Counted from the stretch's first letter, positions 20,762 to 63,273 are shown. The stretch is DNA of 64,000 nt from Vicinamibacteria bacterium (GCA_964291235.2 OZ219815.1:416001-480000); one strand, 5' to 3'. Numbers and translations: made by a program. Notes: a model not told the origin generated them from the sequence alone.

Positions 20762-20790
20762 GGGAACGCCGACCTCCAGGTCGGCACAGC
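20762..20790 (+). repeat. REP-like element (type B); left arm of 29-bp inverted repeat
   Basis: GGGAACGCCGACCTCCAGGTCGGCACAGC; exact reverse complement at 24169-24197; partial copy from 20882. Confidence 0.85.
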
Positions 20791-21075
20791 CCGCCGCAGG
20801 CGGGCGGCGGGACGGACCCCGACCGTCAGAGTGGTTCCTATCTCGGCGTACATCCCACCAACCCCCGCGTCACCCAGGCAAGGGAACGCCGACCTCCAGG
20901 CCAGTTCTCCGGGTGGGGGCCGGCACAGCCCCGCGAAGCGGGGCGACGGGACTGCCCCCCACCGTCAGGGTGATTCCCCTCTCGGCGTGAACCGGGATCC
21001 CCCGGAGGAACCCATCAGGGGAAACCAGTTTCCATCCGCGCCCCCGTGCGGAGGGCGACCCGCGGACGGGGCGCT

Positions 21076-22164
21076 CTACTTGCCGGTGGCCGGCGCGCCG
21101 TCGGCTCCGGGCGGCCACCGGGTGGATCGGTAGGCCTGTTCCGGGTGGGTGATTCGGTCCGGGATGGTGCGTTCGAGGACGCCCTCCTCGACGAGCGGGC
21201 TCAGGTGACGCTTCGCGAGGTTCTCGGGGTCTATCTGCAACAGCAGCCCGAGAGTCTCGGAGGTGGCCGGACCTCGCTCGTTCAGGGTCCGCCAGATGGT
21301 GAATCGCAATGCCGCCTTGCGGGGACGTTTGCCCAGCGTGAGGATCTGGACGCGCAGGTTGTCCGACAACTCGGCGAGGGCTTCGGCGCGCGGCCCGGGG
21401 GGAACGCCGGGAACGGGCGAGGGCTCGGCCGGTGCGGAAGAAGGCGTGGATTCCTCCGGTAGATCAGGGGAACGGACAGGTTCCTCCGGCGGATCGGGGG
21501 AGGCCGCAGGCTCGTCCGGTGGACCCGGGGAAGCTACGGGCTCCTCCGGTGGACCCTGGGAAGCTGCGGGCTCCTCCGGCGCACCGGAACAGGCAGGTTC
21601 CTCCGATGGACCGAGGGAGGCGGCTGGCTCGCCCGGCGCCGCTGGCGGCGGCGTCCCTGGAGCCGGGCGCGGCCCGGCTCCAGAAGGGAGCCGCTCCGGT
21701 GTGGGGGGACGCGTGCCGGGTGCGCGCTCGTTGTCGAGGATGCTGGGAATACGGTCCGCTTCACGGCCGATGCCGACGAGCACGAGCACGGAGCGGCCGA
21801 ACAGGCGGCTGCCGGTCGCGAGGAGTGCGGCCACCTCGCGGCCCCGGCTGCCGGGTGGGAACGCCCTCTGCAACTGCCCCGCGAGCCGGTCCGCGATGCC
21901 GCGCATCTCCTGGATGACTTTCGCCGCGTTGCGGAGCGTCCGGGCAGTGCGTCGCAGCGCCGGACCGGTGTTCGTCCGGAGCCAGCCGTACGCGTCTCGG
22001 ATGCCTTCGGCGATGTACGGCACCCAGAGCCAGAGGCTGTAGAGCCGGGGCCGCGGCTTTTTGAGCCAGCCGCGGATGAGGTCAAGACCGAGTGGCTCGC
22101 CGGGCAGCGACTCCGGCTGCTCCTCTGCGGGAGGCAGCTCGCCGCGAAGGTTGAGGCCTTGCAC
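21076..22164 (-). CDS. Protein with Pro/Glu-rich repeat linker and C-terminal winged-helix (Fic-like C-terminal) domain; start uncertain
   Basis: L..RHLSPLVEEGVLERTIPDRITHPEQAYR; about six PEEPAASPGP repeats. Confidence 0.65.
   Translation of the reverse strand: MQGLNLRGELPPAEEQPESLPGEPLGLDLIRGWLKKPRPRLYSLWLWVPYIAEGIRDAYGWLRTNTGPALRRTARTLRNAAKVIQEMRGIADRLAGQLQRAFPPGSRGREVAALLATGSRLFGRSVLVLVGIGREADRIPSILDNERAPGTRPPTPERLPSGAGPRPAPGTPPPAAPGEPAASLGPSEEPACSGAPEEPAASQGPPEEPVASPGPPDEPAASPDPPEEPVRSPDLPEESTPSSAPAEPSPVPGVPPGPRAEALAELSDNLRVQILTLGKRPRKAALRFTIWRTLNERGPATSETLGLLLQIDPENLAKRHLSPLVEEGVLERTIPDRITHPEQAYRSTRWPPGADGAPATGK
21440..21635 (-). repeat. 30-bp coding tandem repeat (about 6 copies)
   Basis: PEEPA(A/V)SPGP decapeptide units visible in DNA and protein. 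Confidence 0.8.
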
Positions 22165-22272
22165 GTGGGGCGAGCGTATCGGAGCCGGCACTGCCGTTTT
22201 GCCGGTCCAATCGCCTTTTTTTGAGTGACTTGAATGTAAGTTACGAATGCAAACGACGGGCGTCAGTCGAGG

Positions 22273-22446
22273 AGCTCCGGTCGATATCCGGGGTCGGCGG
22301 TGGTAGCTCCGGTCGATATCGGGGATCGGCGACGGAAGCTCCGGTCGATATCCGAGGTCGGCGGCGGGAGCTCCGGTCGATATCCCGGGTCGGCGGCGGA
22401 AGCTCCGGTCGATATCGAGGGTCGGCGGCGCGAGCTCCGGTCGATA
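22273..22446. repeat. 32-bp tandem repeat array, left arm (6 cores)
   Basis: Core AGCTCCGGTCGATA at 22273, 22305, 22337, 22369, 22401, 22433. Confidence 0.97.
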
Positions 22447-22505
22447 ACACCCGTCGGTAATGCGGGTCCGCTCCAAAGGAAAGGTGCCGATAGCATGAGG
22501 GTGCG

Positions 22506-22727
22506 ATGACTCGCTACCTGACCGCAATCGTTGAACGGGAGGGTGACGGATATGTCGCCCTGTGCCCCGAAGTAGATGTCGCAGCCCAGGGAGACACCGT
22601 TGCCGAAGCACGCGCGAACCTGACGGAAGCACTGACCCTTTTCTTCGAGACCGCCTCCGCGGAGGAACTCGATCGGCGCCTGGGTGGAGAGATCTACGTG
22701 ACGCAGGTCGAGGTCGCCGCTGGATAG
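22506..22727 (+). CDS. hicB: HicB-family antitoxin (short form)
   Basis: AIVEREGDGYVALCPEVDVAAQGDTVAEARANL.EA. Confidence 0.9.
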   Translation: MTRYLTAIVEREGDGYVALCPEVDVAAQGDTVAEARANLTEALTLFFETASAEELDRRLGGEIYVTQVEVAAG

Positions 22728-22947
22728 GCCGCGCGTTCTTTCCGGCCGGGATGGCTGCCGCATCCTGGCCTCCCATGGTTTCGTGGAGGCATGGCGGCGG
22801 GGCAGCCATGTCGTGGTCCAGAAGGTCGAGGCCGGGCGCACAGTGACGGTGCCGATTCCCGATCACTCGGAGTTACGCATCGGCACCCTGCTGTCGATCA
22901 TTCGGCAATCCGGCGTCCCCCGTCCCGAATTCGAACGGAACTCCTGA
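22720..22947 (+). CDS. hicA: HicA-family mRNA interferase toxin (probable CTG start; absent from ORF track)
   Basis: Manual translation: (M)DRPRVLSGRDGCRILASHGFVEAWRRGSHVVVQKVEAGRTVTVPIPDHSELRIGTLLSIIRQSG; GSH motif; GAGG 6 nt upstream. Confidence 0.88.
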   Translation: MDRPRVLSGRDGCRILASHGFVEAWRRGSHVVVQKVEAGRTVTVPIPDHSELRIGTLLSIIRQSGVPRPEFERNS

Positions 22948-22967
22948 GACAAACGGTTTCCAGACGG

Positions 22968-24071
22968 AGCTCCGGTCGATATCCGGGATCGGGGGTGGGA
23001 GCTCCGGTCGATATCCAGGGTCGGCGGCGGGAGCTCCGGTCGATATCCGGGATCGGCGACGGGAGCTCCGGTCGATATCCGGGATCGGCGACGGAAGCTC
23101 CGGTCGATATCCGAGGTCGGCGGCGGAAGCTCCGGTCGATATCCGGGATCGGCGACGGGAGCTCCGGTCGATATCCGGGATCGGCGACGCCAGCTCCGGT
23201 CGATATCCGGGGTCGGTGGCGGGAGCTCCGGTCGATATCCGGGATCGGCGACGGGAGCTCCGGTCGATATCCAGGATCGGCGGCGGAAGCTCCGGTCGAT
23301 ATCCGGGATCGGTGGCGGAAGCTCCGGTCGATATCCGGGATCGGCGACGGGAGCTCCGGTCGATATCCGAGGTCGGCGGCGGAGACTCCGGTCGATATCC
23401 AGGGTCGGCGGCGGGAGCTCCGGTCGATATCCGGGATCGGCGACGGGAGCTCCGGTCGATATCCGGGATCGGCGACGGGAGCTCCGGTCGATATCCGGGA
23501 TCGGCGGTGGGAGCTCCGGTCGATATCCGGGGTCTGCGGTGGCAGCTCCGGTCGATATCGAAGGTCGGCGACGCCAGCTCCGGTCGATATCGGGGATCGG
23601 CGACGGGAGCTCCGGTCGATATCGAGGGTCGGCGGTGGCAGCTCCGGTCGATATCGAGGTCGGCGACGGCAGCTCCGGTCGATATCCGAGGTCGGCGACG
23701 GGAGCTCCGGTCGATATCCGGGATCGGCCGCGGGAGCTCCGGTCGATATCCGGGATCGGCGGCGGGAGCTCCGGTCGATATCCGGGATCGGCGGCGGGAG
23801 CTCCGGTCGATATCGAGGGTCGGGGACGTTAGCTCCGGTCGATATCGGGGATCGGCGGTGGGAGCTCCGGTCGATATCCGGGATCGGCGACGGAAGCTCC
23901 GGTCGATATCCGGGATCGGGGTGGGAGCTCCGGTCGATATCCGGGATCGGCAGCGGTAGCTCCGGTCGATATCGGGGATCGGCGGCGGAAGCTCCGGTCG
24001 ATATCCGGGGTCGGCGCGACAGAAGCTCCGGTCGATATCCGGGGCCGGCGACAGAAGCTCCGGTCGATATC
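22968..24071. repeat. 32-bp tandem repeat array, right arm (about 35 cores)
   Basis: Core AGCTCCGGTCGATATC every 32 bp from 22968, apart from two 31-bp units and one 34-bp unit; second half semi-variable. Confidence 0.97.
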
Positions 24072-24077
24072 TGTCAA

Positions 24078-24123
24078 GAGACACGAACTTTTGCGCACTT
24101 GGGAGACACCTACTTTTGCGCAC
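24078..24123. repeat. 21-bp direct repeat pair at array end
   Basis: GAGACAC-GA-ACTTTTGCGCAC and GAGACAC-CT-ACTTTTGCGCAC, period 25. Confidence 0.8.
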
Positions 24124-24168
24124 CACGTGGCGGGGGGGAGCGATGCGCCGCCCGCGGGCCTGCGGCCC

Positions 24169-24334
24169 GCTGTGCCGACCTGGAGGTCGGCGTTCCCGTG
24201 CCGGCGCGACGTGGGGCTGGAGAGCGATGTGCGTTTCGCGGCCTGTGGCCGCGATGCCGGCCGGAGGCCGGCGCTCCTATGGGTGGGCGCCGCGGAGCGG
24301 GTGGCGGGCGATGCCAGCCGGAGGCGGGCGCTCC
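24169..24334 (-). repeat. REP cluster (type B at 24169-24197, type A at 24251-24277, degenerate copy 24308-24334)
   Basis: Reverse-complement matches to 20762-20790 and 184-229. Confidence 0.85.
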
Positions 24335-62874: not shown

Positions 62875-63273
62875 TTACCAAAGTGTCCTCACGTGTGGAT
62901 ACCTGCGGAGCTTCGCGTCCCGCGTGACGAGGACCGCACCGTGCGCGCGGGCGGTCGCAACGATGATCTGATCGGCCGGGTCTCCGGCGAGCTCGGCGGG
63001 CAATCGGCAACTCTCGACCAGAACCGATCGGCTCAACTCCGCGGTGCGGAGGCCAGCACGTCCCAGGGCGAGGTCGAGCCAGTCGTCCAGTGCCCGGTCG
63101 AGGACGAGCTGGCCCTTTTCGATCTTCTTGCCGACCTCCCAGATCGAGATCGAAGAGAGCCAGAGGCGCCCTTCCGCTGCGCCGGACTCGATTGCTTCGC
63201 GCGCTGAGCGCGATAGCCGATCGTCCTTGGTGACCCACCAGATCCACGCGTGCGTATCAAGAACGATCGGCAT
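62875..63273 (-). CDS. vapC: VapC PIN-domain toxin
   Basis: VLDTHAWIW, SSISIWE, DPADQII.ATA, LVTRD. Confidence 0.92.
   Translation of the reverse strand: MPIVLDTHAWIWWVTKDDRLSRSAREAIESGAAEGRLWLSSISIWEVGKKIEKGQLVLDRALDDWLDLALGRAGLRTAELSRSVLVESCRLPAELAGDPADQIIVATARAHGAVLVTRDAKLRRYPHVRTLW

Follow-up and report, generated by a model that had tools for sequence, protein, structure and literature searches.

A winged-helix gene paired with a 32-bp repeat array: a candidate binder-plus-site-array module recurring in one lineage of Vicinamibacteria

In the partition systems SopB-sopC of plasmid F, ParR-parC of R1 and TubR-tubC of pBtoxis the gene of a DNA-binding protein lies beside a tandem array of the sites that the protein recognises, and many copies of the protein coat that array. 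The sopC array comprises 12 repeats of 43 bp, a short inverted repeat lying in each; TubR belongs to the winged-helix proteins, and in many plasmids toxin-antitoxin (TA) genes are linked. Here we describe a chromosomal locus of related anatomy, in a 64,000-nucleotide stretch (hereafter the window, C1:416001-480000) of the genome of a Vicinamibacteria bacterium (GCA_964291235.2; two contigs, C1 and C2, 3.45 Mb, 68 % GC, labelled G000). A gene for a protein ending in a winged helix-turn-helix (wHTH) domain adjoins an array of 32-bp repeats that is interrupted by a hicB-hicA TA pair, the whole lying between a Big_5 gene and an M14 peptidase gene. On balance we take the locus to be one copy of a lineage-specific, multi-copy module in which a sequence-specific binder coats its own phased arrays, in the manner of a centromere or chromosome organiser. 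As in many plasmids TA genes lie near the arrays. In contrast to the plasmid systems no ParA, ParM or TubZ gene is adjacent and no ParB_N domain is found by Pfam; the module is chromosomal, with several paralogous copies and orphan arrays per genome and arrays that reach 41-60 units, and its protein, which is not found on plasmids, is set apart by a long disordered linker and by an N-terminal peptide of its own. A type I partition (ParABS) locus was also considered and rejected, there being no ParB or ParA match in or beside the module in Pfam; the two ParA-ParB pairs of the genome lie elsewhere.

All of the features that an earlier note on this DNA had placed in the interval are present where it placed them, including its array of about 41 units, which consists of 6 plus 35 units, all on the plus strand. 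The 16-mer AGCTCCGGTCGATATC occurs 41 times at ≤ 2 mismatches, with six occurrences at 22273-22448 and 35 at 22968-24071 against 0.08 in shuffled sequences, and Tandem Repeats Finder (TRF) returned a period of 32 with copy numbers of 5.5 and 34.6; the array is far above chance expectation. Positions 1-16 of the unit carry 1.8-2.0 bits and positions 17-32 carry 0.4-1.8 bits, the 16-bp core being invariant in 38 of the 41 units and the other half variable, with a second semi-conserved block, TCGGCG. The contrast between an invariant core and a variable half-unit points to a site under selection. A coding repeat was rejected, as 32 bp is not a multiple of 3 and units of 31 and 34 bp are present; the long open reading frames (ORFs) that run over the array are due to high GC content. 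An array of clustered regularly interspaced short palindromic repeats (CRISPR) was likewise rejected, since the variable half-units are variants of one consensus, CGGGRTCGGCGRCGGR, rather than unique spacers, there is no cas gene and the array pairs with the wHTH gene.

The gene beside the array lies on the minus strand and does end in a winged-helix domain, as had been proposed, on the evidence of both the family alignment and an AlphaFold model. Its product starts with MQGLNLRGE, as in homologs, and carries an N-terminal peptide, PxGLDxIRxWLxKPRPxL..WLW, that accounts for five of the six invariant columns of the family alignment. The model (numbered on a 367-residue query) shows helices at 44-152, a disordered region at 153-262 and the wHTH domain at 263-352, the last with a predicted local distance difference test score (pLDDT) of about 95 and the helical hairpin with about 70-84. 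The disordered linker, some 110 residues long and rich in Pro and Glu, varies in length between homologs. No Pfam family matches the protein above its cut-off, the sole match being a weak one of the C-terminal wHTH domain to Fic-like_C (PF21247; E 4e-4, 20.6 bits against a cut-off of 27); a family profile matched the C-terminal domain of the Fic protein 4rgl in the PDB (E 1.3e-3), and Foldseek retrieved wHTH folds of the MarR/ArsR type and matched nothing outside the wHTH domain. The N-terminal part had no usable match in the ESM Atlas, NCBIfam holds no family for the protein, neither Pfam nor NCBIfam places it in a Rep family, and PADLOC matched it to no defence family at E ≤ 0.001. The C-terminal 90 residues or so appear homologous to those of Fic-like_C proteins, among them the Fic protein 4rgl and 'regulators' composed of AlbA_2 and HATPase_c_4, but the present protein has no Fic, AlbA_2 or HATPase domain and its N-terminal two thirds are family-specific. 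A dN/dS (ratio of nonsynonymous to synonymous substitution rates) of 0.37 against the ortholog in the related genome G025, together with the high pLDDT of the wHTH domain and the invariance of the N-terminal motif, makes the protein look functional.

The family is restricted to one lineage. Among 5.8 billion proteins 64 relatives were found, one bearing the source name 'hypothetical protein' and the others unnamed, and an exhaustive profile search gave 55 cluster representatives (50 % identity) at E < 1e-30. Many further profile matches share the C-terminal domain alone, including AlbA_2 plus HATPase_c_4 proteins, and distant ones pass the PF21247 cut-off (for example P0080 at 37.9 bits). Whole-genome searches located the family in 21 of the 28 genomes of the taxonomic family, with up to about nine matches per genome. 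A profile search of 301 genomes of the class gave full-length matches only within this family (f1; 21 of 27 genomes), while three of the 273 class genomes outside it matched in the C-terminal domain only. No homolog occurs among 72,556 plasmid records, 50,697 phage records or viral contigs. A limited search of the literature, covering the organism group as well as 32-bp tandem repeats, DNA-binding proteins and bacterial chromosomes, found nothing in print on the protein family.

We surveyed the surroundings of 38 near-full-length family genes at distinct loci, 14 duplicate loci and two fragments having been dropped (genomes carry G-numbers, extracted loci L-numbers, and the relatives compared throughout belong to the same taxonomic family). 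An array lies within 350 bp upstream of the start codon at 26 of these genes, at a distance of 2-302 bp, and only downstream, within 100 bp, at a further eight; one more gene has its array 562 bp downstream and one sits at a contig edge. Adjoining arrays are thus found at 34 of the 38 genes, compared with 603 of 20,000 random 1050-bp segments of G000 (3.0 %), although these counts overstate independence because the loci are related by descent. The suggestion that gene and array form a coherent unit is borne out by this recurrence and by the paralog-specific cores. Array periods across the loci are usually 32 bp or composites (53, being 21 + 32, as well as 64, 96, 127 and 160).

The genome G000 itself has three paralogs, each with its own array and a different core, CCGGTCGATATC, GCTACTAGTAGC and AGCCATGGTCAAA. 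The window copy has CCGGTCGATATC units. P2 (C2:224265) has about 12 units of 32 bp with the core GCTACTAGTAGC in a mirrored layout of repetitive extragenic palindromic (REP) element, terminal block, array, AT-rich spacer and gene, while P3 (C2:1702415) has AGCCATGGTCAAA units at a spacing of about 19-22 bp downstream of the gene. Orthologs in other genomes keep their core: type 'a' is found at 11 loci, 'd' in G000 and G026 and 'f' in genera g1 and g3. A recognition-helix string of the form x3(N/S)Lx2R(H/Y)L does not vary within a core group but changes from one group to another. The longest arrays contain about 60 sites.

Between the start codon and the array lies the AT-rich spacer noted before, the GC fraction of which falls to 0.42 at 22200-22249 compared with about 0.68 around it. 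It contains a 9-mer palindrome, GTAAGTTAC, that is unique in the 3.45-Mb genome where 4.5 copies are expected, and a CGTAAGTTACA-like element is present upstream of most paralogs irrespective of the core of their arrays. The spacer presumably contains the predicted promoter or operator of the wHTH gene, and the CGTAAGTTACA-like element is a candidate common operator or unusual promoter element. A consensus scan found neither a sigma-70 promoter nor a terminator, the consensus being uninformative for Acidobacteria. This arrangement raises the alternative of purely local regulation, in which the protein acts as autorepressor or activator, has no part in chromosome organisation, and finds in the array an oversized operator or a titration sink that buffers its level and perhaps that of hicBA. 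Where the array lies upstream (26 cases) it borders on the promoter spacer of the gene at a distance that varies rather little (2-302 bp), the spacer element is conserved, and the short HicB without a Pfam DNA-binding domain makes outside control conceivable. However, 20-60 phased sites far exceed the needs of an operator, orphan arrays of 11-34 units are found far from the gene, and an invariant N-terminal peptide, a helical hairpin and a long linker would be useless in a simple repressor. We consider local regulation as the whole explanation unlikely.

The same succession of gene, AT-rich spacer and direct repeats resembles an iteron origin. Iteron initiators such as RepE of F, pi of R6K and RepA of P1 and pPS10 are wHTH proteins acting on repeats phased with the helical turn beside an AT-rich tract, and the module could accordingly be the remnant or the live origin of integrated plasmid-like elements. 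Arrays flank the gene on both sides in some relatives (L029, L030 and L065), as they do in P1 and F, the f-type sites described below fall into two halves separated by a central tract of about 200 bp, and TA genes are nearby. In comparison with the initiators, however, the model contains a single winged helix, the N-terminal hairpin and disordered linker offering no second one, a 41-unit array is far longer than known iteron sets, and the matches reach about nine per chromosome, so that several orphan arrays would be surplus origins. Having a single wHTH domain, no Rep family membership and no homolog in the plasmid and phage records, the protein was rejected as an iteron Rep initiator, and a replication module of this type appears very unlikely.

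A number of arrays with the window core are found without a family gene. These include A2 (C2:423216-424222), with 34 units directly after a hipB-hipA pair, A3 (C1:1062293-1062628), with 11 units, and two units at C2:1510773 beside a ribbon-helix-helix (RHH) gene. A related core, CACCTGTCGATAAC, forms two 24-unit arrays (C1:851011 and C2:1475385) with no family gene beside them, and the same is true of the AACATGTCGCAGTAGC arrays at C1:277313 (17 units) and C2:2024261 (12 units) and their remnant at C2:870918; in G022 a AACATGTCGCAGTAGC-type core adjoins a paralog. Sites of the f type form four bipartite loci, only one of which has a family gene (P3). At each locus a tract of about 200 bp in which TTCCGG and GAATTCGG abound is flanked on each side by 4-6 AGCCATGGTCAAA units, a layout that looks like that of an origin or centromere. 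The earlier note had held that array, wHTH gene and hicBA occurring independently elsewhere, with a 29-mer abundant enough to flank them by chance, would speak against a unit. Arrays without a gene do exist, as do paralogs with other arrays. They suggest a binder acting in trans on several arrays rather than independence, and the sequences indicate that the proteins probably act on several loci in this way. Since some core types in G000 have no cognate gene there, arrays can persist without a resident binder, and they can probably outlive it.

Orphan arrays, some with cores lacking a cognate gene in G000, and the finding of different arrays at the same intergenic site in different species could also indicate selfish minisatellites, akin to variable number tandem repeats (VNTRs), that spread alone and are near wHTH genes without function. 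We find this barely credible given the excess of adjoining arrays over the 3 % control, the invariant core beside its variable half-unit and the way in which core type follows paralog type.

Pfam shows the arrays of G000 to have no ParA, Rep or recombinase gene among their neighbours; several of the arrays sit between housekeeping genes and two are in restriction or MADS-like islands. In L017 the array A3 lies between two genes that together span C1:1059647-1064362, a methyltransferase-HNH fusion gene (PADLOC mad2, MADS) and the gene of a 486-residue protein that diverges from the array where the wHTH gene would sit; a PIN gene is 2.9 kb away. The 486-residue protein was considered as a possible paralog and rejected, being unrelated to the wHTH protein and belonging to no Pfam family. 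A AACATGTCGCAGTAGC array in L110 (C1:273000-282000) abuts a phd-like antitoxin gene beside Mrr, YgjP-like and HsdM genes, which form a restriction island.

At its gene-distal end the array of the window is closed by a terminal block containing two direct repeats of GAGACACnnACTTTTGCGCAC, followed by CACGTGG and a REP. The same combination of terminal block and REP is found at four other array ends (C1:277851-277896, C2:871033, C2:423156 and C2:223730), and the five arrays that carry the block span three different cores. Relatives have sequence variants of the block in which the two-repeat form is kept. The terminal block may be a second, putative, protein-binding element.

The 29-mer GGGAACGCCGACCTCCAGGTCGGCACAGC at 20762-20790 (+) recurs exactly, as its reverse complement, at 24169-24197 (-), complementarity extending to 56 nucleotides at 88 %, and these two are its only matches in the window at ≤ 3 mismatches. 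The genome however holds 178 copies at that threshold (79 forward and 99 reverse, 35 of them exact) in 77 clusters. They form GC-rich hairpins in intergenic clusters, the features of a REP family served by a REP-associated tyrosine transposase (RAYT), and a RAYT-like Y1_Tnp gene at C1:16598-16834 (33.2 bits) is flanked by inverted clusters of the same family at C1:15833-15981 (+) and C1:17058-17570 (-). The pair in the window is two copies of this genome-wide family and not a dedicated terminal repeat, and the copies there are no different from ordinary REPs. The proposal that the 29-mers mark a dedicated boundary thus falls, both on their copy number and on comparison with the closest ortholog, which is beside the same M14 gene in G025 and has REPs beyond the array only, with none past the 3′ end of the gene. 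Neither P2 nor P3 has such a REP pair, and a transposon with dedicated terminal inverted repeats was rejected on these grounds together with the lack of a transposase in the module.

The related idea of a REP-bounded non-autonomous element, in which a RAYT transposase recognises the 29-mer ends and moves the 3.4-kb cargo between them, fares similarly. To its credit, measured against the minimal empty sites of G022 and G027 the entire insert falls between the two exact inverted 29-mers, a RAYT-like gene is present in the genome, and the array-distal REP is tied to the terminal block at the four further arrays. In addition, neighbouring REP clusters in (+,-) orientation 1-8 kb apart occur as only six pairs in the genome, and because two of these bracket the arrays A1 and A3 the two-sided flanking deviates from uniform scatter. 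But the paired REPs are missing from the G025 ortholog, P2 and P3, the 'empty' sites of G019, G017 and G024 hold REPs already, the same site carries other inserts in G020, G013 and G026, and the substrates known for RAYT proteins are single or double REPs about 100 bp long. An element of this kind is highly improbable; we read the REPs as frequent companions of accessory intergenic regions rather than as element ends. Short-read contigs from four DNA runs break at the REPs and the array, no trustworthy joint being seen, and Rfam gave only a chance sub-threshold miRNA match, inside the wHTH gene.

An ORF and Pfam scan found no transposase, integrase or cas gene between the Big_5 and M14 genes, in line with the earlier description, and the Pfam scan of the module and its neighbours found no NTPase, Rep or transposase gene. 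In 22 of the 28 genomes the M14 gene is present just once, and we compared the region upstream of it in 13 relatives, one 585-bp contig-end locus being dropped. The empty site that had been suggested as a check is found in five of the 13 (G019, G017, G024, G027 and G022), where thiD-Big5 lies about 95-270 bp from the M14 gene, and these sites identify the module as an insertion. G020 and G013 carry there an orphan array that has a different core, CACCCAGCGATAAC, and a terminal-block variant of its own; G026 carries an unrelated 2-kb insert, and in five other relatives Big5 is not nearby. The Big5-M14 intergenic site is an insertion hot spot. In G026 (L104, G026:C1) a short element with TTAACAGCCTGTGG / CCACAGGCTGTTAA as inverted repeats at its edges lies where the Big5 gene starts, and next to it comes an insert of about 1.7 kb that is unrelated.

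The hicB-hicA pair does lie between the two parts of the array. HicA matches PF07927 (E 8.7e-14; 51.8 bits against a cut-off of 27) and is one of only two HicA genes in the genome. The hicB product matches UPF0150 (E 0.005) and DUF7387 (E 0.002) below the Pfam cut-offs, has no NCBIfam match and shows no DNA-binding domain in the Pfam scan. The start position of hicA is CTG at 22720 here and TTG in G019, G016 and G027, with the frame open, and G016 has a 1-nucleotide deletion in the gene; a second, minor hicA allele with eight differences across 22762-22903 is present in the contigs of two runs. The 517-bp hicBA segment has counterparts of 84-92 % DNA identity at seven places in six other genomes (another five matches, 27-49 bp long, were dropped). 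Six of these seven places are in or beside arrays, five being embedded in group-a arrays and one beside an array with another core, while one has no array within 1.5 kb. At G019:C49 and G016:C44 hicBA is placed and oriented as it is here, with a group-a gene downstream of it; three places are hicB remnants. The association of hicBA with the module is thus upheld as that of a recurrent array resident, and the comparison suggests that the cassette has long resided in these arrays. In G025 a different, 1.6-kb insert (L056, G025:C1, 9533-11132) splits the orthologous array; the minus-strand ORF of this insert, read by eye, appears to encode an AAA-type ATPase. It seems that arrays take up cargo of various kinds.

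Within about 3.5 kb of arrays or modules are one of the two HicA genes, both ParE genes and two of the roughly 23 PIN genes, by a count made post hoc, and hipBA and a phd-like gene abut arrays in G000. In the Vibrio superintegron TA cassettes stabilise the integron arrays, a TA pair in a recombination-prone array penalising the deletion of that array; here integrase and attC sites are both lacking, and the repeats are 32-bp tandem units. By analogy with those cassettes hicBA could plausibly stabilise a recombination-prone array, or the array-bound protein could control hicBA. A roadblock or defence device would relate the TA genes to the arrays in another way, coated arrays stalling replication or transcription as in Tus/RTP-Ter or Fob1-type systems or acting as a sensor that releases toxin. 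Long arrays of tight binders do block forks, the post hoc count shows TA genes to be over-represented near arrays, and two arrays lie in restriction or MADS-like islands. The protein matches nothing in PADLOC, however, several arrays are between housekeeping genes, and GC skew and strand bias are too weak to settle the orientation of the arrays relative to replication or to define replichores across the two contigs. We give such a device little credence.

Under the binder-and-array reading that we favour, the 362-residue protein would use its C-terminal winged helix to bind the conserved core of the unit; binding, higher-order assembly and a cellular role are what we infer from the anatomy. 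The cores suit a dimer because they contain short palindromes such as GATATC, ACTAGT and CCATGG, and units every 32 bp, about three helical turns, would place many protein copies on one face of the DNA. A large nucleoprotein complex would then be built directly beside the promoter spacer of the gene, and the same protein may occupy the orphan arrays with the same core, namely A2 at C2:423216, A3 at C1:1062293 and possibly the GTCGATAAC arrays. The N-terminal peptide, invariant across paralogs of any DNA specificity, would dock these complexes to one cellular partner or surface. The candidate roles of the assembly are centromere-like, organiser-like and autoregulatory; the protein may act as a centromere-binding or chromosome-organising protein, with autoregulation of its own gene as a by-product. 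RacA-ram of Bacillus subtilis and MatP-matS of Escherichia coli offer a parallel, these proteins combining one DNA-binding domain with a helical or coiled part and a partner-binding end and recognising many palindromic sites over the chromosome, and the module may work likewise. In contrast to it, their sites are single and dispersed, the proteins are single-copy and conserved rather than members of a diversifying set of paralogs, and no homology was detected.

Several observations count against this reading. Two of the 37 assessable genes have no array, the P2 gene is frameshifted, and AACATGTCGCAGTAGC, and arguably CACCTGTCGATAAC, are core types without a cognate gene in G000. L042 and L035 are a possible exception to the pairing of helix and core, having the same helix string (HQPSLVQRHL) and array cores, as picked by k-mers, that differ. 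Common ancestry alone might in principle account for the match between core and protein. Arrays are not clearly clustered around dnaA, and the likeness of the N-terminal peptide to the N-terminus of ParB (GLGRGLEALL in the ParB of G000) covers only about five residues.

More tentatively, the paralogs, as a diversifying family, and their arrays could form a chromosomal system of satellites and binders not described before, in which private DNA specificities are combined with a common docking peptide and the arrays, each coated by its own protein at several loci, are clustered or anchored like the satellite chromatin of centromeres and heterochromatin, serving as landing pads that take in and keep TA cassettes such as hicBA. 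We regard this extension as possible, with doubt.

The features of the locus are collected in Table 1. Elsewhere in the window a PIN-domain (VapC-like) gene at 62896-63267 is the best of the roughly 23 PIN matches of the genome. The two ParA-ParB pairs of G000 are at C1:946581, beside dnaA, and at C2:1342381, near the maximum of the cumulative GC skew of contig 2; the genome may hold two replicons or have an unusual arrangement.

Table 1 Features of the module and of related loci in G000 (window positions unless a contig or locus is given)
Feature	Position	Strand	Remarks
REP unit	20762..20860	+	Hairpin GCCGACCTCCAGGTCGGC; holds the left 29-mer
Second, disrupted REP	20882-20990		After the left REP unit
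Gene of the array-associated protein, 362 aa	21076..22164	-	GTG start at 22164 set by homologs, stop at 21076
In-frame 30/60-bp tandem repeat	21455..21636	-	Encodes the linker (PEEPxxSxGP units); TRF
Spacer, ~105 bp	22165..22270	.	Between start codon and array; GC 0.42; palindrome at 22236-22244
Array part 1	22271..22448	+	6 units of 32 bp, core AGCTCCGGTCGATATC; last unit degenerate (GATAAC)
hicB-like antitoxin gene, 73 aa	22506..22727	+	N-terminal HicB/UPF0150-type fold only
hicA toxin gene	22720..22947	+	Overlaps the end of hicB; PF07927
Array part 2	22966..24071	+	35 units; 32-bp period, two 31-bp units and one 34-bp unit
Terminal block	24072..24125	+	Two direct repeats GAGACACnnACTTTTGCGCAC, at 24078-24098 and 24103-24123
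REP unit with right 29-mer	24140..24210	-	29-mer at 24169-24197
REPs of second type	~24240-24330		After the right REP unit
Bipartite f-type loci	C2:700993-701392, C2:1293115-1293505, C1:1299260-1299620, C2:1702004-1702357		
Genes flanking A3	L017 2648-5185 and 5903-7363		

Arrays of binding sites are well understood on plasmids, as centromeres and iterons, and are hardly known as a recurrent multi-copy feature of chromosomes. What is new here is a lineage-specific case of a probable binder with a tandem site array that is chromosomal, multi-copy and accompanied by orphan arrays. The unannotated family and its arrays would together provide a set of recognition pairs with many natural specificities on one scaffold, a testable model for how bacteria may mark or organise several loci and a concrete case in which to ask why TA genes settle in repeat arrays. 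The hosts are uncultured marine symbionts of the sponge type, in which the system is so far visible through genomes alone.

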